64,000 nt of DNA, taken from an uncultured bacterium (GTDB taxonomy: Bacteria > Oederibacteriota > JAAXVQ01 > JAUVAV01). The notes beneath the pieces are model-generated. The model searched no databases. It saw only the letters and a program-made list of their open reading frames with translations, and was not told the origin of the DNA. Made by a program: the position numbers and the translations under genes. How positions within the stretch are numbered: the stretch's first letter is position 1; each line of letters starts with the position of its first letter. Positions 1,572-55,600 of this stretch are shown in pieces. The stretch spans positions 9,411 to 73,410 of the forward strand of contig CBDUZI010000001.1 of NCBI GenBank assembly GCA_965371665.1, given 5' to 3'.

Positions 1572-4500
1572 TTAATTTCCTCCTTCCAATTATTATTGCC
1601 CACGATATAAAAAACGGTAAAATTCCGCTTTTCCCCAGGCTTTAGAGTGACTTCTTTGCCTAATAGTTCCATGGTATAAAAATTCGAGTCCTGCCAAACA
1701 CCGATTTGACCAATCTCCTCATGCTTGAATAATTGCATAAAATAATCTTTAGTAGCTTGGTTTAGCCCTACCACCCAACCCGCACGCGGTTCATAAGAAT
1801 CTTTATCGATTTTCGCAATAAATTTTTCAGTTACGAACTTGACTCTTTTCTTATTTTCAGGGTCAGAGATTGGCATAATCATCCTATGTTGCTCGTCCGC
1901 AAAATTATTTTTACCCGGAGCAAGATCAGGATGATTGAACCACTGATATTTCATGATGTCACCCGATAAGTTGGTAACTTGATAGTCTACCTGGAGGCGT
2001 CTTCCCTTAGCAGGTAGTATCATAGTTCTTTCGAGAAGGAGCCCCTTGCGGGTTTTAGTATACATTTTAACCGCTGCTTCATTCCCGTCATCAGTTACAA
2101 TCTCCGCCTCCCAATGATTATTCCAAACCACACCAGGCCAGCCCGATGGAAACCAGTCATTTATACCTCCGTATTCAATCCAGTCCCTATCACCTTTACG
2201 TTTCGCTATCTTAGGATAATTTTGATAAAGCATATTAGCACCGGTTTCGCGATGATAAAACGCCATTATTCTCCCGCCAATATCCTGAACGGCTTGAATT
2301 TCCACTTCGGCATTCGCTAAAATGACATCCTCGTCGCCACGCTTCATGATATCACCCATTAACACTTTAGCTTCCCCTTCAACCACAACTGGATATATTA
2401 ATTTAAATCGTTTTATTTCCTGGGGACATCTCAATTCAAAACCAAGGGTTTCTTTTCGAGCTTTCAAAGGCAATATGGAAAACTCCAACAGGACCTCCCC
2501 ACCTTTAGGAACGCTGAAGTTTAATTCTTGCGGTTCTACTTGCAAACCCTTTGAGGGGGTTAACATCACTGTTCCTTGGGTACTCATATTCCCACTAGCA
2601 ATCAGTCGAATAATACCTGTACTTTTCTTACCTTTCACCAGCACTCGTGGTCCTTCGCATGAAATAATTCGCCACACGGGCAAAACTTCAACTTTCTGAG
2701 GTTTAGACTTAAAAAAATTCTTCTTGACTCGAAAACTCGCAATAATGTCATAAGTTTTTTTCTTTTCAAGACTCGGTGGCAAAACAGAAAAAGTAAGTTT
2801 CTTTGTTTTCCCTGTATTTAGGTCCAACTTTTCTTCCTTTTTCCCTTTCCACGCTTTCGGCAGATTTAGCATCACCCTCCCTCTGACTTTTTCCGTGAAG
2901 TTATTCTTTACTTCCACTTCCAGTTTCGTCCATTTTCCCGCAGATACTGCTTGTTGGTCAGTCAGAATATCAACCTCAAAGGGCGAAATAACTTTAACAA
3001 TACCTTGGGATGAAACCGTTTTTACTTTTCTTCCCCGTGGAGTAATGAGTTCTCCTTTCAACCAGATAATATCTCCGGCTTCCGCGGTAGAAGGAATTTG
3101 AAAGGGGAAAACGGTTGAGATCACCTGGCCAGAAGCTAATTGGGGGATAGGACGCGTTTTCAACACGTGCTGAGGAGAAAGTGTGGCATAACCCGCCCGG
3201 GAATTAATCACAGGTTCGTTGCGTTTCACGAGCCATGCGGATAACGCTAAGCGAGCATTAGAAAGCACTTTCTGACTTAAATTCCTCGCTTCCAAACCAA
3301 TCTGAATCTCGGTATTAACTGTTGCACTTAACTTTGAAGCACGTACATTAATAAAATAATCCTGCTTATACTTTGCATTATATTCCATGACATATGTACT
3401 CGCTTCCGTAGCCGCCCCAACAGCATCCGGATAGAAGGAGATCGTCTGGGGTGTAGTTGCCACGAAGGTTATTGGTCTCCCCCCCTGCCGGACAGTAATG
3501 GCTTCATCGAATTTCCATTCCGCAGGACGCGGTAAGGTTAAGAGCGTTTTTTGATATTGCTGCAACTGGATAACCGTGATCCGGTTTTTTTCTCTTTCAA
3601 TGACGAGGTACTGGTCGCCGGTTAAATCAAATCCATAAAGACGGGAAAAGCGGCCGGCTAAAAAGGTCCCGGAATTATTTGTAGCTATAAAACCGTTTTT
3701 AGAAACTGTATGGTTTAATACCTCCAGTTCATGGACATTTGAAATATTCGCCAAAATACCCAGATCAGGATAGGCGGACCAGAAAATCCGGTTGGGCTCC
3801 GGCTGGGAATAATTCAGTAGTGGTTTGCCCACATATTTGGATACGACTCGTTTCTGTAATTGATCCGCCAGGGCAAACCATTTTTTTTGATTATGCCATC
3901 TAGAAACCCAGCGACCATTCAGCATATGGTAGCCATGGGCGAGATACCAGACTATTTTTTCATGACTCTCACAAAATACTTCATGGGCGAGGTCATGATG
4001 AAAAAAACAAACATGTTCGTGACCGAGATACTGCGCTATAGGAAAATATTCCCAGTTCCCTTCTCCGAAAAGGTTATTATAATCCACACTCTCCGGAACG
4101 GTAAAAGAAGCCAAGCCGCTGAAACCGCTCATCATGGGTATCAAGCGATCGTATCCCTGTTCAGTAAACAAAGGACCCAATTTCAGGTATGCTTCACAGT
4201 TTTCATACCAGGCTTGGCAATAACCGATCGGATTTTTTAATGTCGGATTTAAATCAAAATAAATAAAACGCGCACCAATCTGATCCAGGAATAATATATC
4301 GATACCATATTCTTTAAAAAATTTATTCGCAATATGATTCCCGGCTTTGACCACAGCGGGATGGCGAGGCGAAGCCGCCCAGCCTTTTCCGCCGGAAGGA
4401 TAGAATTCATATTTAAGATCATTCTTTAAATCCCGGCTCGCTATCTCTTCCGGACCACCTGCTCTTTCCAATGTCGGACTAATATTCCAGAAAGTCGGAT

Positions 4501-6784: not shown

Positions 6785-7042
6785 TAAGCATAACCCTCCT
6801 AATTCGACTCTGCAATCAGCCTTTTACAGCCTCGGCTCTTCGTCTTATACTACCCACCCCAAACCGAAAGCAAAAACTGCTTTTTAGACACAGAAGCTCG
6901 AAGATTAAATCCCAAATCCGAAGCACCAAATCCGAAACAAATCCAAATTTCAAACTTCAAAATTCAAATAAAAAACAAGAAAAATCTTTGACCGGCTTTA
7001 CAGGATATACAAGATTTTATAAAAAATCATGTTCATCCTGTC

Positions 7043-7112
7043 AAAAAAATCACTATTTTCCTGCCACAAGCGGTTAATTACGTTTATCTGCGTCCATCGG
7101 CGGTTGTTAATT
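7043..7112 (-). promoter_or_regulatory. conserved upstream element A (copy 1): tcactattttcctgccacaagcggttaatta-N-ATCTGCGtccATCGGCGGttgttaa
   Basis: A 70-bp block about 270-340 nt upstream of the 1568..6784 start. Near-identical blocks occur at 18592-18670 and 22485-22552, and the core recurs at 16765 and 20541. It contains a direct repeat of the CATC(G/T)GCG half-site at about 10-bp spacing. Confidence 0.45.
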
Positions 7113-7175
7113 TCTTGGTCATTCGAATTTCGATATTCGAATTTAATTACAATCTCTCTATGCCTCTGTGGCCCT

Positions 7176-8129
7176 CTAATATACCAAACCCACCGTAAAG
7201 AATTGAGTACCTCCAAAGCTGTCTGAGCTCCAAGTGGTAACCCGATAGGCATAGTCCAAACGAAAAGTGCACACCCCTATTGCTGTCCGAACACCGACGC
7301 CAAAGGTCATGCCTTCTGTCCCATCCGGGGCCAGGGCATACCCCAGGCGGGCCGCAAAAACACCGGCATAAAAAAATTCGCCTCCCATATGCAAGCTGGT
7401 TTCGGATTCCAGAGTCTGTTCAATATCCAGCGCCACAAAAAATTTTTCCAGTAAGCCTGACAACAAATCATATTTTGCGGAAAGAACAATACGCAGGGGC
7501 AGTGGATCCGCCTCATCGATGAATTTCAGGGGCAGGCCGAGATTTTTTACCGCCAGGCCGACCAGAGCCTCGGGCGCGGCTTCCCAGAGAACGCCGATGT
7601 CCGCCGCAAGGGTATTCGCGGAATATTCTCCCAGCGTGGAATTGAGAAACTTCAAGTTCAACCCGCAGGAGAAACCATCCAAAAATTTTGAGACCGGCCG
7701 GCCCAGGGAGATGATACCCAAAATATCTCTAACCTCAACGGACGACTGGCTGGTGCCGGCATCATTTAAAGACGGCATCCCGTGGTAGACAAAGGTAACT
7801 CCCAGTACTCCGAGGTGTGAGAACGGCATGGCAAAATTCAAGATCTCGGAATAGTCTTCCGCAATTCCGGTCTGATGCGTAAAAAGCCCGCTCACCCTCT
7901 GGACGGATTGCAAACCCGCCGGATTGTAAAATATAATCCCTGGATCGCCTGTTAGGGTACCACCAGCCCCACCCAAGGCACTGGCCCGGGCTGTGTTAGC
8001 CGTCACCAGCAACAGTCCTCCAGATGTATCGGCCGCATCGGCCTGCACCGCCAGGCAGATAACCGACATGCCGGCCACCACCAGACCAGTCGTTAGCATC
8101 AACATTTGAGAAATTCTTTTTGGGCTCAT
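7176..8129 (-). CDS. FadL/PorV-like outer-membrane beta-barrel protein
   Basis: The likely true start is MSPKRISQMLMLTTGLVVAGMSVICLAVQA (signal peptide); the ORF track extends it to 8234. The motif TLTGDPGIIFYNPAGL resembles the N-terminal FadL/OMPP1 hallmark (..ADDA...NPAxL). The protein ends in an aromatic residue (..TVGLVY). Its start ATG overlaps the TGA of the 8126..9601 gene. Confidence 0.65.
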   Translation of the reverse strand: MSPKRISQMLMLTTGLVVAGMSVICLAVQADAADTSGGLLLVTANTARASALGGAGGTLTGDPGIIFYNPAGLQSVQRVSGLFTHQTGIAEDYSEILNFAMPFSHLGVLGVTFVYHGMPSLNDAGTSQSSVEVRDILGIISLGRPVSKFLDGFSCGLNLKFLNSTLGEYSANTLAADIGVLWEAAPEALVGLAVKNLGLPLKFIDEADPLPLRIVLSAKYDLLSGLLEKFFVALDIEQTLESETSLHMGGEFFYAGVFAARLGYALAPDGTEGMTFGVGVRTAIGVCTFRLDYAYRVTTWSSDSFGGTQFFTVGLVY

Positions 8130-25662: not shown

Positions 25663-28600
25663 TTACGCGGCCATGGCGGTGCTGCGGAATATCCTCCGCC
25701 TGTATTTCTCAAACGCATCGCGGTCGATGCTCACGGGCAGCAAATTCAGGATGTCCCGGAATGCGCCCAAAGCTCCGCTGTTTCCGGGCTGCAGGAGCAG
25801 CCCAGGTACCAGGATGTCTTTATGCTTCACGCCCCGCGGGGTCGAATCCCATGCAGCCAGGCTCTGCGCCTCGAGGCTGGCCATGCTTCTGCACAGTTCG
25901 CTGAAAGTGGCCACAGATCGCTCGTGGTCTTTGATTAACGCCCGGGCCTCGGCAATGTGCCCCCTGGTTCGCAAGCGCCTGATCTCGACCCGCTGGGCTT
26001 TGAGCATGCGGATCATGGCTTTTACAAAACGCTGCGTGTTCTGTGTGCTTGGATTCAGGCTGAAACGCAGGTAAGCCTGGCCGAGTGCGCTTTCCGGATT
26101 ACGCAGCAGATCCGCTAGCGTTGAGTTCACTCCTACCTGGTTGAGCACTACATCAATATAACCCATGGGATTCTGACTCCTCATATTTTTGAGCACAGGC
26201 TGCGCAATCCCTAGGGGCAGGATGAACGCGGCTAGGCGCATGGCCTGCAGGCCTAGCGTGCTCCGGACAGGCAAAGCCGGGATGGCCTCCTCGACCTGGC
26301 CGTCAAATACTCTGGCCTTCACACCCACAGGCAGTTTGTCTGCAGCCACCATAGCCGGCGTGATCTTGGTATTGAGTGGGCTGGAGAGCTTAAAAACCAT
26401 TTGGGCGGACATGACAATCTTAACGTCGCCAACCTCAAACTCATGGGTGCTGACCTGGCCGGTAGCGACCGCGCGTATAAACCGCTTTTTGATTAATTCT
26501 TCTCCGATATCCCAAATCTTGTCGTTCTGATTTTTAAGTCTGGCCAGCCGCACAGACTCTGCCCGTTCGGCCTCGGCCAGCAAGACAGGTCCGATTTCGG
26601 AATCCAAGGGAACCAAAGTGCCGGCAGCTACAGGAGTTCCGTCTGCGGCTGACCAAGCAGCAGTCAGGAGCTTATTCAGGAACTGCAGCCGCTTGCTCAC
26701 GCCTGTGTCCTGGCAGGATTTCTTCTTTAAATCATAGAGGGCCTGCTGCACCCGATTCTGGAGGTTCTTATAGGAAGCAGGCATAGTCATCAGGTAGACT
26801 TTTTGGGCCTTGACGTCCTCGTCCGGTTGTGCTAGCTCACGTTCAGGATCGCCAACAGGCAATTCCGCCTGGCTCTGAATCAGGAGCGAGAGCAGGTCAT
26901 TGAAGACCATGGCCTGGAGCTCGGACGCCAAGCTGCGGCTCTCCCTGGCCAGATCGCGTAATCTTGCAGCCTGACCGCCTTCCTCTACGCCCTCTACGGA
27001 TTCCATTACCTTCAACAAGGTTTCCAGGTTCGGTTCAGCGCCCTCCTGCAAAGCGGTCTGCAATTGTTCGCGTATCTGAGTTAAGCTGAGATCTTGTTGT
27101 GCTTCTGTAAGGTTTTGGGCGGCGGTCAGCCAAATTTCTGCCAAGCGAATAATTGAATGCACACCTAAGGCAACAGGTTTTCCTGTCTGTTTTTTGATCC
27201 AGGTTAATGCTGGTGTCCCAATTTTGAGCGAATCCGATCCCTGTTCAGGTTGCTCCTCGTCCAGTTCCCTGGTCCCAACCCCGAAGCCCATGGCCATGGC
27301 CAGCGGATCCAGCCGGGTTTTGGCGTAATACCGCTCAGCCTGGTAGCCCGCGATTACTGCAAAGAGGAAAGCATTGATGCGGTAAACCAAACGGTCCAGG
27401 CGCGAACGCAGGCTGTTGTCCAGTTCTGGCACCTGCTGAGAAAGAGCCTGGAGCAGGCGGTCTGGCACATAAATCGTAGGCCGTTGCGCGCCCTTACTGT
27501 CCAGGTCTCCGTACTCAAGATACGCGCCCAAAGCCTGGCCATGCACCAGCCGGCTAAACCCGTTCGCCTGGAGAGCGGAGAGTGGTCTAAACAGCACCTG
27601 CTGAATCTTGAACTTACGCGCTGCGGCTGCATCTGGAATCAACAGCAGGCGTTTCATCCGGTTGAGCAACGGATTGTTATCATCTACGACCACAGGCTCG
27701 GCCGTACGAGGGTTGAGGAAGATCAAAGTCGCAGCCTGCAGGAGGGCCAGCACTGGCATTAAAAGTCCTGTTAGGGCGCCGAGTGGTGCTCTCAAATTCA
27801 GGTTCCCGGCCTGGCTGCTGTCATTAAAGAATAGGGCTGAAGTCAAGCCGTAGCGCAAAAGCCTTAAGGGCCAGAACCGGATGCCGCGATAAGGCAGATT
27901 CATGTCCTCCCCGGCCGGCAGGATCTGGTGCAGACGCTGCAATTTGCGGACTAATGTTGAGGGGCCGGCCGTATCCCCTGTAGGATGAGCCTCTCGCCTG
28001 CCAGTAAGCACGGCATCCTGCTGTTTTTCAGACAGGCGAGACGCCTGTTCTAATAATAACTGAATAGTTAACTTGTGGATCGAGCACACCTGCGACCAGT
28101 AGGCAAGCAGCTCTGCAGCCATGCGAGTGCGCGGTTCCAGGCCTTTTTTCCGGCGTGCCTGGTGATCGCAGCGGTGGGCATCCTCATGCTCGAAGATCGA
28201 GCGCTGTTCTGCAGGTGTGAGATAGGAGAGCCGCACCAAATTGGCTATGATCTTGCCGCTGCCAGGATCGTAGAAAGTGATTTTGTTCAGGTCAGTGGCA
28301 GAAAAGCCGGCGCGCTGCTCTAGGGGCAAGACCGCCATGTCCACAACATTGGGATTTTTCACGAATTGCGCGATGACTGTCTGCTGAACATCGCCCCGAG
28401 GCCGGCCATCTGCAGCCCTGCGGCCACTCCACCAGATGCGGGCAGATTGCAACAGGAAGAAGCCGGCTATGGCCGGCATCAAGACTACACCCAGCCCTCC
28501 CAGGATGAAGCCGGCCGCACCCAGGCCCAGGCCTAAGCCAGTGAGCCCGACCAAGGACGCATAGCCGAATACCAGGGTTGCGTAAGCGCCCATGGCGCCA

Positions 28601-31600
28601 AGGGCTGCCAGGGCAGCGGCTGCCAAGCTGCCAATGCTCGAGACCAGTTGGACGCCTTCTCTGGGCAGGACCTGCCGCCAATGTTCCAGATATTCCAAAA
28701 TTTCTTCGGTCGGCGGCAAGCCTCGCAGGAAATCAGCCGTATCCGCAAATCCGAAATACTGCGCGTAGAAATTTAAATCCTTCTGATCGGTTGGAGATAA
28801 TTCATCATACGTGTATTCGTTGATCGCCGGCAGGTCTAGCTCAGGCAGATGATTCGTCGAATAGAGATACACTCCAGCATAAGAATCAACCAGATCGTAC
28901 AATTGTCCATAAGTCTGAAGCTCGTTCACATTGCCGATGTCTTCGATCCGGTAGCCGGCTTTGGCTAATATCCGCCGGAAGTCTCCCTCGGAAAACTCGT
29001 AACAGAAATATCCTCCGCCCCGGTATTGGTGCAGTTCCTGATTAAGGACATTGACCCAATTTCTCCAGTCACGGGCATCCAGGGTCTGCTGTCCGAGAAA
29101 CTCAGGCAGGGTCTGGGTTCCCGGGAAGGGCTGGGTAAGCAGCTGATCACCATAGGAGGCGAGAAAGAAAGCTAACTGGTCAAAGCGTAAATTTAAAGTA
29201 TTGACGAAGTTCTCAAAATCCCGATAGCCCATATTCTGCGCGATTTGATTGTATTCTTCCAGGGTGTAATCGCGGCCCAAAACGTGGTTTAAAGCACCTG
29301 CCAGACGCCCGACATTATCCAAAGTGATGGTTTCCTTGCCTCCCTGCTCCACATAAACCCGCTGACCGTCCTCACCTCTAAGATTCAAGGCGTAGAGCAG
29401 GTTTTCAAACAGGGCGTTAGTCTTACCGGACAAGGGATGGTAATAACCTGTTTTCCCAAAGTGGAAGGGACTGTCTCCCAGGAACTGGCTGAGCTGCGGC
29501 GGATAAACTTGCTGGTTTTTATATGTGGCCAGGTCCCAGATATAGTTCCAACTGCGGCTGGTTACATGGATGCCGCTCCAGATCACAAAGGCCGCGAAAA
29601 CGCTTAATTTTGAGCTGCGTGATACCCGATACAGGAAATTATTGAATCTTTTGGTCTTGGCCAGCGCCACCATCAGTGATAGAAAAAACACCGTACCAAG
29701 CTGTAATCCCCAGGTGTTGTACCACATCCGGCTGAAGTTGGCGATAATCTGGAGTTGTTTGGGTACTTCTTGGCTACCGGACAAATCCCGCAAAAATTCA
29801 CGGATCAGCGCCTGTTGCAGAGCCCGGTCCTCTGCCTGTACCGGGTAATTTTGGAGAGCCCGGGCATCGGGGTTGACAGAATCCAGCAGGGTAGACCGGG
29901 TCGGCTTTTCCCATACCGTCATTCCGCCCCGCAGGAAATCCAGGCCTGGCAGGACGCCAATCTGCTTCCAACCCGTGGCCACCAGCAGCCGGTTATATCC
30001 CGCATTTCCACTGATGACACGGTCTAAGCCGTATTGCTCATTATTTATTAAAATATCAATCAAGGGTGTCATGGAATTCATGCCGCGCTCAAAACCCAGG
30101 GTCGCAGCATCGTATCTGACTTCTGAAGGCGTTCCTTTGAAGCGCTGGTTGTACTGAATGGTATCCGCCATACGGCCCAGGGAAACGCTTGGAATGCTTG
30201 TGATAATCGGGAACTCCGCTCCTACGACCAGATAGCGGGTGTTCACCGTTCCCAGGCCTCTTAAACTGTTCGTATCTAAAAGCATGTTCAGATCCGGATA
30301 TCCAGACGGATGCAGGGGAACGATCTCTTGGCCGAGTTGCAGTTCTCCTGGTCCTGGAAATGCCTCTGGCACTCCTTCGGCGCCAGCCTCGATTTTAATA
30401 ATCCGTCTTCTCATATCTTGAGTCTGGGCGCCGATCACCAGGTTTGGCGTCGACCCTGTCTCCTGCAGAGCTATGTTTGCCGGTATTTCACCTTCCCATT
30501 CATAAACCGCTTCCAATCTTTCGCTCAAGGTTTCACCTTGAGCGGTGATTCCTTCCAAGTCAGACGAAACAATAGTTTTGACTACAAATTCATAATACTC
30601 ATCGGTTTCTACATCTTTTAAAAGCAGTTTTCTGACCTCCGGGGTATCCAGGTTGTAAACCATCACTCCTGGGGCATAAGCCGGGGTAAGCCGAACCCAG
30701 GTCTCTGGCTCCCCAGCGCGGTTCGCCATATCCCGAGACACCTCGATAATGATGTTGGAGTTGGCGCTCGGCGTGCGGCTGTGTACTCGGGCAATCAAAA
30801 ATTTAGGCAATTCCCGCAAGCGAAGTCTCCGGCTGGCAAATCCATATTCCTCGATTTGAGTTGTTGTAATTAGTTCCCCACCCTCGACCCGGGTCGATGT
30901 AAACCAATCCTCGGGATTTATTGGAATATTAACTTTCGGGCGAGGTAGTTGTCCGGGTTTGATTTTTTCCATAACCAAGGCTGGAACCCGGATAATGTAA
31001 AAGTCAAACCAGGCTCGGGCAGACCGGTTTTCAGTCTCGCTGAACTGATCGACTACGCCTAATGAAACTTCGAAGGATTGGTTTCCAGATAAACCCCATT
31101 CCCGGAGCAGATCTGCCAGATTAATCCTCTCCTGGTTACTCTGGCTGTTGAATGCAGCATAAACGTATCCGTCTGGCAGGGACGGATGATGAATGGCGAC
31201 ATAGTACGTGCGGGTTATGTCACTGATCTCCATATTCAGCCAGACATTTTCGCTGTCCAGATCCACGCGGATAGGCTCGGGCATGCGCACGCTGGCCCGA
31301 TTGGCGCCGGAAGTATTCGCGCCGCGAACTAGCAGGCCTCCCTCTTCATTCCAGTCTACCCGCGCATCCTGGAGGTGTGCCTCCTGCAGCTTCACAGAGG
31401 TATAATAGTCATCGATTATCTTGTGCGGTTCAATATCGCTTTTGTCGGCGTAAACATGCATGACCCGGTCTGCGCCCGCGGGATCGGACAAAGCCGCAGT
31501 GTTCTCCTGCCCTATCTCTCCAAAGCCAGCAGCTTCGACTTCAGGCGATTGCGAAACTTGCCCGGCCTCGAACGAGCCGAATCCTCCGCTGATATCATGC

Positions 31601-43600: not shown

Positions 43601-46600
43601 TATGCTTTTTTCAGCCGGTCATGCTCAACATAGACCTCTCCCAGCCGATCATAGGCTGTCCGAATCTGTTGGCCTAATTCAAACAGATGCTGCTCCAGGG
43701 ATATCGATGGATTCAAGGATGCTGCCTGCATGGTTGTTACTAATGCCCGTGCCTCAAGGTCGACTACGTCCCGGGCCTGGGTTATAAGGCCGGGTAATTC
43801 CCGCCGGCGCTGCAGATTATCCTTTGTTTGTACGTTTTCTTGCCGTAAAGCTTCCAGTTCTTGAATCAGCCGATCCTGCTTGTGTCGTGCATGTTGCAAC
43901 TGCTGATACTGATGGTTAAGGGAATCTTTACACTCAAGCAGTCCGTCTTTTTGCGCCTCCAGTTCTGCAATCTTTTGTTTTACCGTCTGAAGTTCTCCGA
44001 GGTCTGGAGCTAAATAATCTTCTGCGCTCATACCAAAGGGTTCTTTCATGATCAGGAATCCAACATCTGATACCTTAACGTCTTGGGAACTTCGCGCAGG
44101 GAAGATGCGGCCGGTGGGAATACGCGCCTTGGCGCTCCCGGCGTAATATTTCAACTGAGCCAGGCCGGGCGTGCGGGAGCGTGTGAAATAGCGCTGCAGT
44201 TTTCTGGCAAGTCTGGAACTCAGCGGGCGGGCGCTGACGACGATGCGGTCGATGCTGCCGGTATGTGCATCCACGCCCAGAGCATAATTTTCATGGATTT
44301 CCGTAATGTAATAAGTCCGGGTTTTTCCGTCGTCGCCGGTCATCACGAAGGGAGTGTCATGCGCCAGGCAGGCGTTTAAAAGCTCCCTTCCGCTGGAGAC
44401 TTCAGGAAATCCGCTTTCAGGCGAGGCCTTGACCTGGACGACTTGCTCAATGACAGGAGCCAGTTTTCGTTGAAGGATTTGTAAAGAAGTTATGGTTTCC
44501 AACTCGAGATTTGCTAAGTGCTGTTGATATACGGGATTTTCGGCCATGCTGGCCAGCAAACGTTCCAGCACGGCGCCTTCGTAACCAGCCGATCGCACCC
44601 AGCTGAGTTCTGCGAATTGAATATCCAACAAGATTTTACTCAAAACGGATAAACGCGTCTCGGTGCTTAACATTTTGCAAATCATGTCGAGTTTATATTG
44701 CTGTTCGCTATCCCTGGGGCTGGGACTGGATAAAAGCTCAGCGAGCTTTGCTTGCCGGTTTTCGGTATTATCCTCTTTAATGCCTTTAATATATTCAACC
44801 ATCTCTTGGTACGCCTGCTGCCTGGCTTGAGTTTGGCTGTCCTTGGCTCCTGTCATTTGGCGGGTTTTCTCCTTAATGGCCTTGCGCTCGCCATTTTTGA
44901 AAATATAGAAAAGCAGCGAACCTGCTTTGATTAAAACCAGGATTCCGGCCAGGGCAATGACTACACCGGCTATGATGGCTAAAGGCAGGGAAAAGACTTG
45001 CAACAGCATTACCAGGGAAACGGCCAGGCCGGCCGTGGTCCCGATCAGGATCGATTTCATCGGCAGCGAGAGCTTGGTCAGAGGATAAAAAGAATTGAAT
45101 TCAAAGGTGGCATTCTTCCAGATGCCAGGATGTTTTTGATTTGCATAGGTGAGAAACGCGTCATTATCAATAATCCCGGCTTTATCGAAACCGGATAAGC
45201 CGTGGATTAAAAATTCACTTAAACTCTGCAGCTTGAGAGGGTGGTTACTAATATGAATTCTTCCCACCAGAGTACGGGTATCCTCCACTGCCTGATCATA
45301 AAACCGGTTAATTCGTGCCGATAACTCAGCCTGGACCTCGGCAGGAGTTTTTCCCTCAGCCTTCCAGGTTTCAATTTCGGCAAAATAGAGTTCGCTCACA
45401 TGATAGGGGTTGAAACCGAGCATAAGCGGACAAGTTTGGCCTCGATTTTCTTTTTGCCATTCGGTTCTTAAGCTTTTCACCTTATCGATTACGGCTGTCA
45501 GCCGTTGTTCCCCCCGGCTAGCAAGAATATGGCCGGTGGCATCATCGCGCAAATTGTACTTCCAGGCTTCTTCCTTCGCTATCACCATTTCAATAACCAG
45601 GTTGATATGATTTCGTGCTGCCAAAGTCACTAAATTCATTTCCGCCGACCTGCGATCGAGAAGATTATGTTTTGCCATATATAAGCCGATGTATTTTTCC
45701 CACTCATAGGGATGAAAAACAACATCCACCGGTTCAGGATGTCTCTCCTCCAGGATCGGCGCTATATCAGCCGTTTTATCTCCAAAGGCCACATGATAGG
45801 CGGCTACCTTCAGTCTTAAGCATTTAGCCGCTTTAATCTGTTCGCGGGTGGTATAAAGTTCATACTTTTTGCTGCCCATAAATAATGTTATATAAACCGA
45901 ATAAGCAATCATGGTGAGCAGGATTATGAGATTGGACAGCCAGCGTATTTTCATGATTTTCGAAATCCCAGGTATAAATTCGGGCAAATTTATTATCGTC
46001 GAAGCTATGGCGGCATTTCGAACAAATTTCTCGGGTGTGTACATCCGGTCTTCAGGCTTTTTCTCGACCGAGATTTCGGCCTCGACACTGCGCGTTTCGC
46101 GAATTTCCGCGCCTGCCTCGGGATATTTTAATTCATCGAAAAATGCCAGCACCTCTTGGGAAAATCCCTCTACGTTCTGGGGACGGTATAATCTGGCTTT
46201 TATTTCTGGGCTGTCCAGGGATATATAGCCGAGTTTTTCAGCAGGATAATCCGCAGCCTGAATCTCAGTCCGAATTTCCAGGGCCTCGACATCTTCGCCC
46301 AAACGAATCTCGAAATTGTGACCAGCGGCTTGCAATTGATCCTGGAGGGCATAAATATAATGCATCTCTTCGCGAGGCGCCATTTCTTCGGAAAGCATAA
46401 TCGCTACCACGGGTACAACGGCTATACGTTTACGCCCGGCTTCGGCTATTATTTCCTTAATTTCCCGAACCAGGGTCGCGATCTGCTCTTCCCGATTGGC
46501 TTCCGTCTGGGATGAAGGCAGCAATATCTCTGCCTCGGGATTAAAGGCGCCGGTCGCTTTCGTGAGCCTTACCCCCCCCATACCGAAGCCTTGAGAAGAT

Positions 46601-49600
46601 AGGCGCACGGCCGGCAGGATGACTTCATCGCCGCTTAAAGCGGCAAGGTCTTGGGGAGAAATCAAACCTGCGCTGGCGCCTAATTTTTGGGGATCCAAAT
46701 GAGAAGCCAGAACTATACCAGCAGCATAGCCTTTATCGGCAAGCCATTGATTTGCTTTGGCGATAATGAGTTCACCGTTGGGTTGACTTAAAGCTTCACT
46801 ATTAATCATAAATCTTTTGGTCCCGGACCATTGGCTGATATCCGACCGGGTTTCTTTGTCTCCTTGCAAGGCAAAATAGATTTTTATTCCATAAAGCAGG
46901 ATCGGTGGCACCAGTATAGCCAGTAAGGGATTTATCACTGAAATGCTCAGGATACCTAAGCCGCTTAAAGTTTCGGCCAGGTTAGCAACCGCATCTAAAC
47001 CTAAAAAGCGAGTGTACACCCAGAAGCCCAGCCCCATTCCGGCAATGATTAATCCGCCCCCCGCGGCTTTGCCTGCCATTCCAATTTTACCCTCTAATTT
47101 AAAAAGGCGGAGTATTTCGGCGAGTTTTTTCGCTCGCACGCCAAACAATTCAATAAATAGAATGGCGCCGAGCCACCACAACAAGTGCACCAGTTCAAAT
47201 CCCATGATCGTCTCTATCAAGCCAGACCAAAATACGACGTAGGCTGCAAAGGCACTACTGCCTAAAAAGCTTGCTATTCCCAGAAATTTATTCCTGGTTA
47301 TTCCATATACAATAAAATAACCCATAACCAATGCAGTCAATGCAACAGCACTTCCCAACATGATTTGAGTTCCAAAGAAAAGCAATCCCAACCCAAGGGC
47401 AATGGCTCCCAGGGATGCTAGAACCTTGTTCTCCAGGGCGCTCCGGATTTTCGAGGATTTAAAGGCAGGCGTATCCTTGCCTTGCAAGAGGGAAATGACG
47501 GTCTGTCCCAGATTTTTACCTAGAGCGTCGATTTGTTCCGAACGCAATGGGGTTGAGCTCTTCTGGATAATTAGTTCCAAAAGTTTATTTAAAGGCGTAT
47601 TTTTTCGGCCTGGATTTATGCCTTTGGCCGTGCCTAACGTCAAAGTGCTGCCTTCGGAAAATTCGGCGGGTTGATAGGGATTCGGACATAGATTCAAATT
47701 CCCTTGCCCAGCCTGACCTGTCAAAACAAAATGTTTCTCGACTAACTGCTTTATGGCTCCGTAGTCAGAATGACGCAAGACGGTTTCCAGAAGGCCATTT
47801 TTAAGTTTACTTATAACTTCATCTGGTTCCTGTCTCGGCCAAAGATAAGCCGCAGCACCTATGGCGAAAAGCAGAGCCCGGGGGGACTTCGCTGCAGCCA
47901 GCGAAACTCGCAAAGCTTGAAGTCTTTTCTCTTGGTCTGCGTCTAAAGTTTGGGCACCAGCCAGATCAATAATCTCCTGGTCCAGCCTATGTATCTCTTC
48001 ACGCTCTTTTTCCTCTGCCTGGGAACCCAATGTTTCTGCCAAAGTCTGAAGCATATGTTGGTTTTTTGCTTGAATACTCTGAGTATCGCGTTGTACCGGT
48101 TTAGCTTTTTCAGTTTTTTTAGCCGTCATGAGTACGTTTAAATTCGCTTCGAATATTTCCGGCTTGCTTCTGTCCAGTTTTAAGGCCACGTTTAAAAGGT
48201 TTTCCGCTTCCTCGCCCTTGAATCCAGCAGCTTGGATTTTCTGACGCAACTGCTCTTCAAACTTATCAATCTTTACCTCTTTTGGCTTTTCATCTTCATA
48301 CAGCTCTTCCTGCTTCTTCAATTCTTTTTCGGCCCAGGCCTTGGCCTTTTCCTCGCTGAGAACCGGGCCGATCAGGGTTTTATATTCCTCGCGAAGATCC
48401 GGATAATCCTTGCTAAGAATCATGCCGGCAAAAATTTCCAGGAAGCTGAACCATTTCCAGCGATTCGGCTTATCGAAGAGTGTGCCCGGGTATTGGGTGA
48501 CATCATGACCCGTGACATGGAAGAGTCTTTGCTTAATCGCGGCCAATAAAAATTCTCCCGGCTCCCGTCCGCCCACTCTGGTCTCGGCCTCGGATTCAAT
48601 CCAGGGAATATCCTTGCCCATGACCTTATGACCCGACATCAGAGCCAGGGTAATGAGTTCGGTTTCGAATTCCATCTTGACGCTGCTGGCAAGTTCAAGC
48701 GCTTTCTTGACAACCTCCGGCCGAAAAGCCTTAAATCCGGCCTGCGTATCCGGCACTCCTCCCAGCGGGACAATCGCCCGGACCATGAGATTAAATCCCA
48801 GGCTCAGGATATGCCGCGCAAGCGGCTTGGCAAAAACCACGGATTCCGGGCCTACGCGCGACCCGTAAACCAGTCCGACATCCGCATTCTCAGGATTGGT
48901 CAGCGGTTCTGTGAGCTTGCCAAAAAGCCCGGCATTGGTGGAAACATCGGCATCTATATAGCCGGCTATATCCACCTCGTCTTCTTCCACCATTATTTTA
49001 TAGGCCTCGTACAAGGCTCCGCCTTTTTTTTCCTGCCTGGCGAATTTCAAGCCTTTGCGGTCGAAATAATACTCGACCCTGATCTGGTCTGCCCGGTGTT
49101 CAAAATCGCTTTCGATCACATTCTGCGCCAGCCGGGCTGAAGCGTCATCGTCTGTGGTAAAAAGAATCCTGGGGCCTAAATGTCCGGCCTTTTTATCAGG
49201 ATCACTTGAATAAGCTACTCCCTCTTCTACAATAGTAATCGTCATCACATCCAGCTTTTCCACACCCTCTTTTTCAGCCTTATCCAGCTTTTCTTTAGCC
49301 TCTTCGGCGTCTTTCTTGGCATCTTCCACCTTTTTTTCAAGGTTTGGGTCCTGCTTAGGAACTAACAGGTTAAGCTTTTTTAATATAGCCGGCAGACTGA
49401 ATATCAACCCGCCCAAGCCGGCCAGCCCGATACCTGTCCAGGAACCCAATATCAAGGCCGCTGGAAAGAAAAAAGTCATGACCACTCCGGCGATGATTAG
49501 AAGAATGCCGATAATCCCGGCAGCAAGCACAGTGTTTTCATCCCAGGCATTCAAGGCTTTACGCTTTTTGCTCAAGTCTTCGTGGTTTTTACGCGCCTCT

Positions 49601-52600
49601 TCTTCATCCTTTTCGATTTTCTCCATCTCCGCTTTTCGGAGTTTTTCCAAGCCCACTTTCGCGGCTAGTCTCAATTCCTTTATCTCTTCCTCCGTAGGAT
49701 TGCTTTTTACCTTAATGACCAGGTGATTGCTTTTCCTGTCCTTGTCCTTTCCTTTTTTAGTAATGCTTTCTTCTATCTGCTCGATGGGAGTAACCTCCTC
49801 CAGAATGTCCTTGCTCGCTTGCCAACTTTTCGTGCCGTCGTTATAAGGATGGTTGGTTCCGTCCATTAACAGCACTTTCCAATCGACTCTTTCATTCCAG
49901 GCCGCGTTATCGTCGATTTGCCGAACTTTTACGCGCAGAAAATCCTCCCCATTAGGATGACCCAGCACCGGGTCCTCGCTAAGATTGGGGAAAATCCGGT
50001 TCTGTTCCCGGTAAAACGAAATTGCCACGCCCAGGAGCAGTCTGTCCTTTCCTTCCGGAATCCTGGTGTTTCTCATATCCACCTTTGCTTCCGCAAGTTT
50101 CAGAATATAGCGAAACATGGTCCAATCTATTTCCTGCATATCATTTGCACTGAGCCGAATAACTTTTTGACCGCTTTGCTTAAATAGCTTTATTTGGTCC
50201 GAGCTCTGTCTTTGGTATTCTTCCGGGGTTAAAACCAGATATGGCAGAAAAGCACCCTGCATAGCCACAGCCTCTGCTCTTTCCATCAGCTTTACGCGGG
50301 TTTGTTCGATATCTTGAGAGAGAGAAGGGCTTGCGGCCTCAGACGTCCGGACCTGGGATATTGCCTGGAGTCCATCCCTGACTTTTTCCAAGGGCGCCAG
50401 CAATTTTGGCGTGAGCCCTCCTTGCTCATAGTTTCGAATAACTTCATTTATATTCTCTAAACTATTGTCAATATTATCCTGACGCCCGGGATTGTCTTGA
50501 TACAGCTTGAGCAATTTATTAAATGCTATGACTTTGGCTTCATACAAAATGCCTTTGCGGCCGATATGCACCAGAATGGCCTGGGCACCTGCCACATCGC
50601 CGGCGCTGCCTAATTCCAACGCTTCCCGGACGATCTTATTAATCTCCGAAATGACTTCGGCATTGGCTTTTTCGGCTTTTTTATTTTTTTCCTGTTCCTT
50701 TTCCAGGATTTTAATCGCCTTGCTTTTATCGATCAGTCGTTTCTCGCCTAAAGCCTTGATTAAGTCAGGATCGGCTTGCTTGCGCTTGAAAACATCATCC
50801 AAATACTCTTTAAATTCATCCGCGTTCGGCGAGAGCAAGGCCGCCGCAAGCACGCTGGACATAACCATGGTCATGGCTTCATCGGCTTTCAACCAGGTCA
50901 TATCCGTGTCTTGCTCATCAGCTTTTTTGCGTTTTTCATTGACCTTGTTCTTGACCGCAATGAGCGTGGCCCTGAGATCTTCCGGCGTGGTCTCGGCGGT
51001 GAATAAATCCTCCAAATTTTTTACGGCTTGCTCTTTTTGAGCCCTCGTTCCTTGCCATAAGTGCTCAAACAGTCCGCCGGATTTAAAGTGTTCATCCCTT
51101 AGTAAACTATTGCCTTCTGTTGGACGGATTTCGGGTCGGGCAGGAGTGGCCCGGCGTTTTTTGTAGAAGTAGCTTAAAAGGCCGGCGATCAGCGTCACGA
51201 TAGTAACTTGGATAGCAGCCAGGGTGATCCGGCCCCGGCTGGTTGAGAACAAGGGAGCCCGGGGCGAACCTTCCAATACGATGTGATCCAATATCTCAGG
51301 ATTGGTCTGGGCCACATACTGAATAACTTCTAAATCCGGGACCAGGCCTTCAGGGCTTAAAACTCTCCCGCGCTGCAGCGCCTCGGGCAGATACTTGAAT
51401 TCCCAGGCCATGGCATTCCCGGTCTGAAGATTGCAGATAAGCCCGTCGCATTGATCCATAACCGGTTTCATTCTTTCAAAAAGTTCAGCCCGGATCCAGG
51501 CCTGCGATTTCCCCTCTGCCAGCCAGGCCTTTATCTCTTCCTGGTAAGAATCCATGGAAAAATGCCAGGAATCAAAGGTAATTCCAACCGGTGCGGGTCT
51601 ATCCGGATGTCGGCCGGCCCAGGCGTCTCTCAAGGCCTTCGCATACTCGATCTGATTCATGAGGTATTCATCCTGACTTATGCCGGCGGCTTCCAGGGGT
51701 TCGAACAATTCCCTGGCTACCGTGGTTTCAAAGGTGATGGTAATATTGTTATCCGCGGCTTTTTCCAGCAGGGCCAGTTCTTCGGCCGTAGGCGCTTTTC
51801 TGGTCAAATGGTCCTCCATCGCCTGGGGATCTTGTTCCAGGGTCTTGACGTCGGGTTTGGTCAAGCGGAAATAATTCGCCCAGTCATAAGGATGAATGTT
51901 GGCCTGCGTAGGTTCGGCATGGGGCGTATTAACAATATCCGTAAGGGATAAAACCTCTTCTTGCCAGGGAATGTGATAAGAGCCGACTTTCAGGTTTAAT
52001 TCTTTGGCAGCCTGCAATTGGTCTGGGGTGGCATATACCTCGACTCTTTCCGCTCCGGTATAAAGCTGCCAATATTTTATATACATACCCATGAGTGGTT
52101 TCAAAAGAATACCCCGCATAGACCAGAAGCCGGTAGTAGTTATGTGCCCGCGGGACATAAGTTCCTGGGACAATTCAGAAAGCGGGGCCTCCTCGATTTT
52201 CAGCTGCTCGAGCACCTGGGCCGGCTGCGCCACATCCGGACTCACCTGGGTGGTAGCCGGGGCGGCCTGCATTTCCGTGACTCCCGCAGCCTCTGGTTGC
52301 GTCATGGCGGAAACATATTGATTTCCTGGAACCCCAAAATACCAGGCGCCGGCTGTCAGGGTCAAGACACTGAGTAGGGCAAACGGAAGGAGTAGCGTCA
52401 AATGTTTGCTTTTGAAAATATTCTGTACTGCTTGCGGCAGCTTATCGTTTTGCAGCAGCCTGGGTATACCAACTCTTTGCTGCACCTGGTTCCGGATTAA
52501 CAACAATGTTCCAAGAACAATTATAGCCGTACCGCTCAGTCCAGCCACCCAACCGGAAAACAGAATGAATGCAGCCACGCCGCTTAAAAAAAGCGCTGCG

Positions 52601-55600
52601 CCTGTCAAGGTTGTCAGTACCGGCCTTTCAACCGATCTCCTGGTAGAAAGGGTGATATCTGTCATGCGATCACGCCAAGATCGATAAGCGATCGTTAGGG
52701 AGCCATCGTTTTGCAGCCAATAGGTTCCTACTGCTCCTCGCAATTTGGGATCCGCTCTAAACGTACGGACAACTCGCCAAATATTCCGCCTATACAGTCG
52801 GGTGGTTGCTTCATCAGCCGTAACTACCAGCAGCACCTTTTGGGCATTGCAGTCGATGCTTAACGCTGTTTCACGAATAAATTCCATGAGCTCATTGTTT
52901 AAACGCCCGGGATCATTAATCTGTATGACAACTAGCGGACGGTTCACCAGGCCAAAACTGGCTATTTGGATCGGAGAGGCCTGTTCGGCTTGCAAATTAT
53001 CCCCACCAATCTGGCGGAACCGGCCGGCCCTCGCCAGCTGGTAAAGCCTATTATCATCGGCGTTTGCAGGGATCGGCTCAAAGGTCTGTGAAACCCAAGG
53101 TTTCAATGCTTCTGATTCGGCAGTCACTGCCGCTTGTACATCTGTCGGCTCTTTGGCTGCCACCATTTCGGCTTCGGGAACTCGGGTTTCAGGCACAGCA
53201 ATCGGTACTGTCGCCACTGACGCAACCAGCTCGGGTACGGCTTCACCGAAGAAATCCTGAAAGATGGCGGCGGCCATGGTTTTGTATCGCATCAAGGGAT
53301 CTCGGTTTTTCAAAAACATCCTTAAATTAACATCTTCCCTGGTGCTCTCCACCGGATGCAGGAACCTTGCACCCCAAGCCAGGCGCAAAGCAAAGATGAT
53401 ACTTTCGCGCAGCTGATCCGGAGTGCGCTTCTGGGATTGATAACGTAAAGCCGCAGCCCGCACAAGATTTTCCCGGAAATGTTGCCGGGCTTTGGCTGAA
53501 CTGCCCTGCCCTATAACGGATTGATATTGGTCGGCCAGCGCTCTGAGGTCTGCCTGCGATAAGGCAATACCGCGTTCCTGTAGTTCGGCAACCAGCAATT
53601 GAAATCCATTGAGGTCCAGCAACCGTTCCGAAGTTATTTCCGCTTGAATTCTGCGAATCAATTTCCGGCGCAAATCTCCACCTTTAGTTTTGTCTGCCTG
53701 GGCTTGCCGGATAAACGATCGTAAAGAGGTGCTCATATGGGGAAATAGGGTACTAAGGGCCCTAACCATTCCAGAGACTTCCCACTCATACGGATTGGCA
53801 GCCCGCGCATGCATCTCCACGATCAGGGCGGCCCGCCTTTTCAAGGCTCTGCGTAATGCTCTCCGGTTGGTAAAGCGTGCGGTAAGTTCGCCCAAGGTTT
53901 GCTGGATTGCGCCTCGAACAAAGGTATCCAGCTCAGCAGCATCATATTTCTTAACCTGTTGGATTAAAGCGCGGAATTGTTTATCCGCCGAATCCAGCGG
54001 TTGTAAATACTGGTCATTGTAAGCACGCATATCGGCATCCCGCCGGGAAATTCCCCGATGGATACGTCGAATATATTTAACCACGTTCTTACCCAGGGGG
54101 GTGCCGACCAAATTAACCTTCGTGTCACTTTCCAGGCTCTGGACAAGTTTTTTGACGAAATCAGGTGCATAAGTCTGGAAGATATCATCATCCATCAAAC
54201 TGTAGATGAACTGGGCAAACCCGCGTAAACCCTGCCGGGCCACGCGTCCGAAAAGCTGCTCACGCGCGGTCTTGCTCGGCGGAATCTCGGCTTCGATGGC
54301 CAGCATGTCAGGCCCTACGACGTTGAAGCCCAGAGTACCGCGGGGGTTGGTAATGGTAACGACATTAGGCAGGGCCGCGATCTCACGAATGGCTTCAAGA
54401 TTTTTCTGAGTATCGGAAGAAATTTGACAAAGTGTCAGGATCCGATATTGTTCCCTAATACGCTCTTCTGCAGCCTGCCGCGCCTTGGGTTCAGTAATCT
54501 TCGCGGCTTTGGCCATCTGGACGCGTATTGCCTTTCCTTGGGCCTTAGCCTGGGCCACAATGCGGGCAACCTTTTCAGGCGAAGCGCGGGCATCGATGAC
54601 TTCCACCGTTAATCCGGGCTGTGCTCTCAAAGTCTTTAAAAGACTGTGGGTTAAATTCATTAGCTTGCGGGTAGTGTATGTTCCGAGCAAAGTTCCGGCC
54701 AGGGGTCTGTGCTGCCCTATGATCTCCTGCAGGGCCTCGGTCTGATGATAAGGATATAAGTGAATCTGATCGGCATAACGATCCCGGACCAGTGAGAGTC
54801 CGTGGTCCGAAGGCAGGAACAGCGGCTCAAATCCCATGCGCTCGCGAAATTCCTTGAGTTCCTCGCGGTTGCCGATAGTGGCTGACATATAATGCAAATA
54901 GGGATAACGCCGGGCATATTGGGCTATGGTCAGCTGGCTCTGATAGTCGCTGATTCCGGTAAACCGGATGCCGGCCCGGATCGCCGGATTAGTTTCTTCC
55001 AGAAAGGCTTTGGCCTGCAAGGCTTGATGGGTACCTCCCCTGATTTCCTGGCCATGCATGTATTGCCCGGTTAAGCGGTTGTAAAGGACTATAACTCCTT
55101 TAACCAAACCATACTCAATTCTACCCGCTTGTTGCGGTCTGGCGCGCGATTGGCCTTCGGAAAGATTGGTCTGGATGAATAAGAATTGCGCATCCAGCGC
55201 GGTCCGCAGGTAATGCTGCAGGACTGGAAATTCCGTCAAATCCCTCCCTTGGGGTAAACCCAATATGGCTTTTACCCGCGAACGTCCTGCCGGGGTTAAT
55301 GCCGCCAATTTGATATCTTCTTCAATCTTTACTTTGTACAGGTCCGCATCCTCTGCCACCAGCTTAGCAACCTGGGCAAAATATAGTCGTATGACCGCTG
55401 GATTAGAACGGACCAAATCTTCAATTTGCCGGAAAGGCGGCAGGGATTTGAAACCAGCCTGAGCTAAAAGTCTCGGTAGTGCCTCACGAGCCTGGGAACT
55501 TAGCCGGAGCTGTTCAGTCGCTAAATCCATCTCCAACATACCAGGAGTCTCGACGAGAGCTCCTATCAACATTTTAAGCCTCTGGTCCTGAAGCGGTTCC

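Follow-up and report, generated by a model that had tools for sequence, protein, structure and literature searches.

Two divergent copies of a predicted xylose isomerase-like barrel in a giant multi-transmembrane bacterial protein

Introduction

Giant proteins of bacteria are, for the most part, unannotated 'dark matter'. The xylose isomerase-like superfamily, by contrast a well-known group, comprises sugar isomerases and epimerases, endonuclease IV, and DUF692, and most members known so far are soluble and 250-330 amino acids (aa) long. The domain described here, termed module A, differs from these in being flanked by transmembrane (TM) helices within a protein longer than 12,000 aa.

The most similar described proteins are the giant SecA-domain multi-TM proteins of Omnitrophota, of the 'Archaeovorin' and Dockerin types (West-Roberts et al. 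2023; bioRxiv 10.1101/2023.11.21.568195). The protein encoded in our window, a 64,000-nucleotide stretch of DNA from an uncultured bacterium, resembles them in its length of >12,000 aa, dozens of TM helices, and SecA DEAD and PPXD domains, as well as in carbohydrate-active and internally repeated domains. It thus shows the features of this class, an open reading frame (ORF) of >10,000 aa, numerous TM helices, and a divergent SecA_DEAD domain, but not the Omnitrophota origin, as its phylum-labelled relatives all belong to candidate division FCPU426. Among Pfam-positive long proteins, 65% (504/779) repeat a Pfam domain at least twice (Nielsen & Lui 2026; bioRxiv 10.64898/2026.06.07.730766). As a further difference from the giants of both studies, the SecA-like part of the present protein is preceded by a fused full-length SecY domain, and module A is absent among the domains reported in them.

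Results

Both copies of module A and a helical tandem repeat are encoded by one giant ORF of at least 12,729 aa (25663-63852), in line with a sequence-only reading of the window that had proposed a single giant protein with internal paralogous modules. This ORF and all features described below lie on the minus strand. The window end truncates its N-terminus: from 63852 to 64000, the frame remains open with no in-frame stop upstream, and the 49 aa upstream of the ORF are ~85% identical to its aa 986-1034. A hydropathy scan gave 73 hydrophobic 19-mer peaks, some of them overlapping. Pfam, run on all 1000-aa tiles of the protein and on the tile boundaries, identified GH5 at the N-terminus, SecY, and a SecA-like part with SecA_DEAD (E = 7.5e-15), PPXD, and P-loop_SecA. 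The giant gene is followed downstream by ABC sugar-uptake genes. A DTQCG motif had raised the suspicion of a GT2-like domain at aa ~4850-5185, for which Pfam gave no confirmation.

Module A occurs at 51238-52107 (copy 1, aa 3916-4205) and, as delimited by alignments, at 45028-45924 (copy 2, aa 5977-6275). In a self-BLAST of the giant ORF, aa 3942-4200 matched aa 6002-6257 with 26.5% identity over 275 columns (E = 9e-22); identity was 31% when the trimmed copies were aligned with MAFFT, and the Smith-Waterman score of 253 exceeded that of 300 shuffles (33.5 +/- 4.8) by ~45 standard deviations (SD). The duplication proposed earlier is therefore real, and the motifs quoted for it (Y..Y..L, AAK.L.LKV..YH, HPY(D/E)W, and a C-terminal AEL helix) were all found. 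The extent given for it, ~220 aa at 51375-52080 and 45240-45870, proved too short, the domain spanning ~290 aa. A profile built from both copies detected no third copy in the giant protein. As anticipated, module A cannot be annotated by sequence: neither copy in the window reaches any threshold in Pfam or NCBIfam.

When 1.84 billion representatives were scanned exhaustively with HMMER, the module A profile matched only 13 proteins, 7 of which are fragments (2,375-4,323 aa) of giant multi-TM proteins. Neither copy 1 nor, afterwards, the 14-sequence family alignment gave any match in a word-indexed homology search; only the exhaustive scan recovered the family. Against PDB sequences, the profile gave chance matches only (E >= 0.18). 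Module A represents a very rare and strongly divergent family of sequences that current profile libraries miss. For the locus search, a four-sequence c1-type alignment served as query. FCPU426 labels are carried by P0003, P0004, P0008, and P0010, and P0001 and P0012 are labelled only 'bacterium'; every phylum-labelled relative of the giant-embedded module and of a colinear block comes from an FCPU426 metagenome-assembled genome. This block, aa ~4260-7770, contains copy 2 and is colinear with the giant-protein fragments P0002, P0003, and P0008. Stand-alone module A genes of 330-413 aa also exist, and module A is therefore an independent folding unit. P0001 and P0004 share 45-53% identity with copy 1, and P0002 and P0003 share 42-46% with copy 2; in the same comparison, the two copies share only 28% identity. 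Because each copy is closer to outside relatives than to the other, the two are, judged by sequence identity, ancient paralogues of two older subfamilies (copy 1, c1-type; copy 2, c2-type) and not the product of a recent internal duplication.

AlphaFold2 (AF2), applied to the 14-sequence alignment, predicted eight beta-alpha units with pLDDT 90.4 and pTM 0.89. The top Foldseek matches of this model were ketose 3-epimerases, and at the fold level the barrel is structurally closest to members of the xylose isomerase-like TIM barrel superfamily. Module A lacks significant sequence similarity to this superfamily (PF01261; TM0416, 2zvr; IolI, 1i6n; E. coli YcjR, 6wn6; ketose 3-epimerases). Neither window copy matches PF01261 (AP_endonuc_2), and the best score in the family, that of P0010b (22.9 bits, E = 8e-5), stays below the gathering threshold of 31.1 bits. 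An hhalign comparison with a YcjR-family profile was statistically weak (pairwise E = 0.011, probability 3.9%); in this weak alignment, FE(T), FDxWH, and HxSN of module A are in register with YcjR E146, D179/H182, and H205/N209. Together with the P0010b score and this register, the best local match to E. coli Nfo, which aligns PVGITFDSWH with RVGVCIDTCH, supports the superfamily assignment at the sequence level. Module A differs from the superfamily in having additional conserved His on beta2 and beta3, an invariant Asn, and long helical insertions after beta3 and beta5. According to the model, module A is a divergent (beta/alpha)8 barrel of the xylose isomerase-like superfamily, a new family with a known fold, and not a candidate for a novel fold as had been suggested.

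The conserved set H, H, E, D..H, H..N, E maps in the model to consecutive beta strands, at their C-terminal ends: beta2 contributes His, beta3 His-Pro, and beta4 Glu; Asp-x-x-His follows beta5, and His-x-x-Asn follows beta6; a further Glu lies on beta8. This arrangement is consistent with the earlier guess of a His/Asp/Glu metal site. The candidate ligand positions are H3960, H3987, E4042, D4094, H4097, Q4143, N4146, and E4194 in copy 1 and H6020, H6047, E6088, N6148, H6151, H6200, N6203, and E6251 in copy 2. Each copy thus has seven of the eight residues, with Gln for the beta6 His in copy 1 and Asn for the beta5 Asp in copy 2. The complete H/H/E/D/H/H/N/E set is found in P0002, P0010a, P0010b, and P0012. 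By position, the Glu-Asp-His-Glu metal-ligand tetrad of the xylose isomerase-like sugar isomerases and epimerases reads E-D-Q-E in copy 1 and E-N-H-E in copy 2, and is complete in the same four sequences, the YcjR register being that of the weak hhalign alignment. P0010a, P0010b, and P0012 are among the most divergent family members. Given the candidate metal site that the conserved polar residues form at the barrel mouth, module A most likely functions as a metal-dependent enzyme.

Nevertheless, some copies, or even all of them, could be pseudo-enzymes, because the canonical ligands are not universal and only A117, P173, and N231 are invariant across the family. We consider it unlikely that module A as a whole is a catalytically dead TIM-barrel scaffold, that is, a pseudo-enzyme or a carbohydrate- or ligand-binding module acting as a spacer or binding unit between TM helices. 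Such a role would fit the fact that many members have replaced ligands (beta6: Q, D, Y, or R; beta5: N or S), among them the stand-alone clade with N and Y at the beta5 and beta6 sites, as well as the loss of almost all ligand positions in P0008 and the fact that two of the three invariant columns are Ala and Pro. However, the four sequences with the complete set keep it at ~16-29% identity to the rest, the Gln and Asn replacements in the window copies are conservative and still able to ligate metal, and there are stand-alone genes without a scaffold role.

Rather improbable is an endonuclease IV/DUF692-like multinuclear-metal phosphodiesterase or oxidase, which might, for example, cut extracellular nucleic acid or surface polymers with phosphodiester linkages. 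Ligand residue types were checked in the E. coli Nfo (1qtw) and YcjR sequences. By strand position, module A has equivalents of six of the nine trinuclear Zn ligands of Nfo (H69, H109, E145, D179, H182, H216, D229, H231, and E261); the beta7 Asp/His pair is absent from copy 1, and c2-type members have just one His there. An hhalign comparison with the single Nfo sequence was not significant (E = 0.32), and NCBIfam gave no match linking module A to endonuclease IV. Endonuclease IV and the DUF692/MbnB enzymes scored structurally below the sugar isomerases, and nothing in the context of module A suggests DNA repair. It is highly implausible that module A is a glycoside hydrolase barrel of the clan GH-A type, such as the giant protein's own GH5, given that about fifty xylose isomerase-like structures rank above the first glycoside hydrolase in the fold search, that the conserved acids lie on beta4, beta5, and beta8 together with His and do not form a beta4 acid/base and beta7 nucleophile Glu pair, and that BLAST and HMM comparisons gave no similarity to this GH5 domain.

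The hydropathy scan and the sequence place a TM helix upstream of copy 1 (52345-52401, aa 3818-3836), separated from it by an acidic Q/P/A/E-rich linker of ~80 aa (52108-52344), and another directly downstream (51172-51228, aa 4209-4227), followed by YFYKKRRATPARPEIR. The same pattern of a TM helix plus K/R residues after c1-type modules was seen in P0001, P0004, P0007, and P0011. After copy 2, there are one or two hydrophobic segments (44929-45045, aa 6270-6287 and 6290-6308) and then a K/R-rich stretch. The earlier statement that a TM helix precedes each copy holds for copy 1, albeit across the linker, but is doubtful for copy 2, where the hydrophobic aa 5975-5993 may not be a true TM helix because they align with the N-terminal helix of the domain itself. 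Likewise, the soluble extension said to follow each copy exists but comes later, a hydrophobic TM segment directly following each copy. By the positive-inside heuristic, the TM helix and YFYKKRRATPARPEIR after copy 1 would probably place this copy outside the cytoplasm, on the periplasmic face. The topology of copy 2 is ambiguous, because either one or two hydrophobic segments precede its K/R-rich stretch. An outward-facing topology is supported by the K/R-rich stretches on the far side of the flanking TM helices and by the features of the stand-alone P0007, which has a twin-arginine-like motif (RRAFQK), a lipobox (LLAGC), and a C-terminal TM anchor.

Fragments bearing module A also carry GH99, phosphomannose isomerase, GH130, and HAD domains, and a stand-alone copy is flanked by genes for a GH99/71-like protein, GT2, GT4, and a 3-keto-disaccharide-hydrolase-domain protein. 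By association, these domains and genes, as well as the GH5 domain of the giant ORF itself and the ABC sugar-uptake genes behind it, suggest a carbohydrate-related role of module A. The surroundings of the stand-alone Thermoanaerobaculia gene were uninformative.

Discussion

Taken as a whole, the data are probably best explained by module A being an autonomous ~290-aa barrel present as ancient paralogues, a membrane-tethered metal enzyme acting on a sugar-type substrate, with the helical tandem repeat as a separate element. The flanking TM helices would tether module A to the inner membrane, with copy 1 probably periplasmic. There it may act on a sugar or sugar-phosphate-type substrate, a class that we infer, and would constitute one station in a multi-enzyme carbohydrate-processing giant protein. 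A more far-reaching proposal, which we regard as doubtful, sees module A as the founder of a hitherto unrecognised superfamily branch that is extracytoplasmic and tethered to the membrane, and whose His-rich metal site may be multinuclear. In that case, module A would be the periplasm-facing catalytic station of a self-inserting 'enzyme line' with fused SecY-SecA in FCPU426, with a chemistry or substrate new to the superfamily, for example, in modification of cell-surface glycans or phospho-glycans.

The finding is incremental, as internal domain repeats are usual in such giants and the fold is common. It places a recurrent dark module in a known enzyme superfamily and provides candidate active-site residues that can be mutated; with stand-alone genes of 330-413 aa suited to expression and assay, an unannotatable repeat becomes a testable enzyme hypothesis. 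To the picture of giants as membrane-anchored multi-enzyme arrays, it adds a putative carbohydrate-type catalytic station, and it extends this picture from Omnitrophota to candidate division FCPU426.

Apart from module A, self-BLAST and shuffling revealed a tandem duplication of a helical unit of ~150 aa at 58015-58926 (aa 1643-1798 and 1799-1946), the two units being ~44% identical and scoring ~46 SD above shuffles. Such a duplication had been noted before as a 115-aa unit at 58000-58800; it is real, but both its unit and its array are longer. TRF found no tandem repeat at the DNA level in this array, and Pfam gave no match for the repeat. A single-sequence AF2 model was all helical, with a pLDDT of 49 too poor for a fold search. 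The repeat is a duplication separate from module A and without an assignable fold, and probably serves in the cytoplasm as a spacer or scaffold that directly precedes the SecY-like channel domain.

Results and Discussion

The interval flagged by the sequence-only reading lies within a single giant open reading frame (25663-63852, minus strand; 12,729 aa), and both repeats found in it, a pair of domains called module A and a tandem helical unit, are real. Self-BLAST in chunks paired aa 3942-4200 with aa 6002-6257 (26.5% identity, 275 columns, E = 9e-22), the local alignment score of the pair was 253 versus 33.5 ± 4.8 for shuffles, and the trimmed modules were 31% identical in a MAFFT alignment, where both copies shared the motifs initially named, such as HPY(D/E)W..Y. 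A profile built from both copies detected no third one in the giant protein. At about 290 aa, the modules are longer than the ~220 aa first estimated: copy 1 spans nt 51238-52107 (minus strand; aa 3916-4205) and copy 2 nt 45028-45924 (minus strand; aa 5977-6275). The transmembrane (TM) helix proposed to precede each copy is present at copy 1, which is flanked by TM helices, but its counterpart upstream of copy 2 falls, in alignment, on the N-terminal helix of the barrel itself. In place of the soluble extension thought to follow each copy, a hydrophobic segment comes at once (aa 4209-4227 and aa 6270-6308, by hydropathy).

Pfam contained no match for either copy, NCBIfam none for any of 14 family members, and no sequence relative was found in the PDB. 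When 1.84 billion cluster representatives were scanned exhaustively with HMMER, only 13 related proteins emerged, seven of them fragments of multi-TM giant proteins (2,375-4,323 aa) and the others short, some being complete stand-alone genes. A stand-alone form of 413 aa occurs in a Thermoanaerobaculia MAG, and four further stand-alone genes (333-344 aa) in JGI metagenomes. Giant fragments with a phylum label in their source belong to candidate division FCPU426 MAGs; P0001 and P0012, two of the relatives, are labeled "bacterium" only. All of these proteins that bear a name are described as hypothetical or take their name from an unrelated HAD domain. Module A thus constitutes a TM-flanked family within the xylose-isomerase-like barrel superfamily that is very rare, strongly divergent, and probably enzymatic. 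The finding is incremental, but it usefully annotates "dark" sequence and offers an enzyme hypothesis that can be tested.

For module A, the suggestion of a novel fold was not borne out: a confident AlphaFold2 model of copy 1 (14-sequence alignment; pLDDT 90.4, pTM 0.89) was a barrel of eight beta-alpha units. Known proteins listed for this model, with their figures, were SMc04130 (13.3), IolI (13.0), YcjR (12.6), AsbF (12.5), Endo IV (11.2-11.4), and MbnB/DUF692 (10-10.8). Sequence support for the superfamily placement is weak but consistent. One module of a relative, P0010b, matched PF01261 with an E value of 8e-5, under the gathering score, and hhalign against a YcjR-family profile (E = 0.011, probability 3.9%) placed module A motifs FE(T), FDxWH, and HxSN on YcjR E146, D179/H182, and H205/N209. 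The best local match of Escherichia coli Nfo to module A fell on the D-x-x-H ligand motif. Residue types at the expected ligand positions of Nfo and YcjR were confirmed in the E. coli sequences; these residues are the metal ligands in the published structures. The His-rich pattern of module A is closer to Endo IV/DUF692 than to the four-ligand sugar epimerases, whereas its structure as a whole resembles the latter more closely; because the two differ, the assignment is at superfamily level only.

A metal site of His, Asp, and Glu residues had been envisaged, and conserved residues placed on the predicted model provide a candidate set at the strand ends. H45 and E127 lie at the ends of beta2 and beta4, respectively. 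H72-Pro follows beta3, D179 and H182 follow beta5, position 228 (mostly His across the branches) and N231, which is invariant, follow beta6, and E279 follows beta8. P0002, P0010a, P0010b, and P0012 retain every residue of this set, although P0010a/b and P0012 are the family members that have diverged furthest from the two window copies (16-29% identity). This retention argues that ancestral module A was a metalloenzyme. Position 228 is Gln in copy 1, and Asn replaces D179 in copy 2. Stand-alone modules of one clade carry N and Y at these two sites, and almost none of the set survives in P0008, so that the activity of any single copy is uncertain.

The modules of P0001 and P0004 share 45-53% identity with copy 1, and those of P0002 and P0003 share 42-46% with copy 2, whereas copies 1 and 2 share only 28%. 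A block of aa ~4260-7770 holding copy 2 is colinear with P0002, P0003, and P0008 (40% identity to P0008 over 2,590 aa). Thus, the duplication predates the split of these lineages, and the copies are ancient paralogues.

K/R-rich stretches lie beyond the flanking TM helices of copy 1-type modules (window, P0001, P0004, P0007, and P0011). P0007, the 413-aa Thermoanaerobaculia protein (locus L012, 6001-7242), has a twin-arginine-like motif (RRAFQK), a lipobox (LLAGC), and a C-terminal TM anchor, which implies export of a folded, possibly metal-loaded domain. Taken with the positive-inside rule, these consensus motifs place copy 1 probably on the periplasmic face. Copy 2 is ambiguous, since one or two hydrophobic segments follow it and its upstream segment may belong to the barrel. 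The short forms P0005, P0006, and those of loci L008-L011 are without TM segment and probably cytoplasmic. Neighbors of P0007 (cupin, DegT aminotransferase, Ffh) are uninformative.

Module A-bearing fragments also contain GH99, phosphomannose isomerase, GH130, and HAD domains, and a stand-alone gene lies near GT2, GT4, and GH99/71-like genes and a gene for a protein with a 3-keto-disaccharide-hydrolase domain. The window giant protein has a GH5 domain within and ABC sugar-uptake genes after it. By association only, this context favors a carbohydrate-type substrate. At L010 (4480-7776) and L011 (501-5181), the stand-alone gene comes after a cassette of the partner-switching type (STAS, response-regulator-SpoIIE phosphatase, HATPase anti-sigma kinase, STAS) and precedes the 3-keto-disaccharide-hydrolase-domain gene, with the GH99/71-like, GT2, and GT4 genes upstream. 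Downstream of the giant frame (261-25338), all genes share its minus strand. Among their products are two ABC permeases, a solute-binding protein, an OmpA-domain protein, FlgD-Ig/Por-secretion-tail and Fn3-like domain proteins, a 1,204-aa SlpA-like protein, and a 1,738-aa DUF6259 protein. GC content is ~38% at 14-16 kb and 22-24 kb, versus 48-55% in the giant gene.

The giant protein is cut off N-terminally by the window: its frame is still open at the window end, beyond the nominal TTG start, and the 49 residues upstream of TTG are ~85% identical to aa 986-1034. These residues together with aa 1-100 match aa 986-1132 (~75-85% identity), and a DNA direct repeat (63616-64000 and 60514-60900, minus strand; 78% identical, spacing 3,102 nt) suggests that a TM block was recently duplicated within the protein. 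A hydropathy scan revealed 73 hydrophobic 19-mer peaks, some overlapping, in clusters alternating with soluble stretches. Pfam recognized few domains: near the N terminus, a GH5-like (cellulase) domain (aa 170-407; 62632-63345, minus strand; E = 9e-7), and a full-length SecY domain (aa 2062-2373, minus strand; E = 2e-40, profile positions 1-304 of 306) directly followed by SecA-like DEAD, PPXD, and P-loop domains and a weak wing/scaffold match. A partial GH5 paralogue lies ~10,200 aa downstream (aa 10383-10478; 33% identity over 100 aa). The SecY and SecA-like parts (53215-57669, minus strand; aa 2062-3546) are fused inside the frame, and this natural fusion may be the most interesting feature of the window. 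The protein matches a class already described in the literature, giant multi-TM proteins of bacteria that bear SecA domains, for which SecYEG was described as encoded elsewhere (West-Roberts et al. 2023, bioRxiv 10.1101/2023.11.21.568195). Internally repeated domains are the rule in this class, and 65% of long proteins with a Pfam match carry the same Pfam two or more times (Nielsen & Lui 2026, bioRxiv 10.64898/2026.06.07.730766).

The tandem helical repeat (nt 58015-58926, minus strand), just before the SecY-like domain, is a genuine duplication (aa 1643-1798 and 1799-1946, ~44% identical, ~46 SD above shuffles), but its units measure ~150 aa rather than the ~115 aa proposed. It had no match in Pfam and no homologue in any of the retrieved proteins. 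A single-sequence AlphaFold2 model was all helical and unreliable (pLDDT 49); a role as spacer or scaffold is a guess.

Another module of ~141 aa is repeated in tandem (61210-62475, minus strand; aa 460-881) with 45% protein identity, and 61652-61951 and 62075-62374 are 85% identical in DNA. Far from these, around aa 10,800-11,000, there is one more copy (30826-31449, minus strand; aa 10802-11009), and P0001 carries this module adjoining its module A. The C-terminal region (aa 11963-12620; 25993-27966, minus strand) is 33-37% identical to the corresponding ends of the FCPU426 fragment P0010 and of P0001/L001, which suggests a C-terminal module common to these giant proteins.
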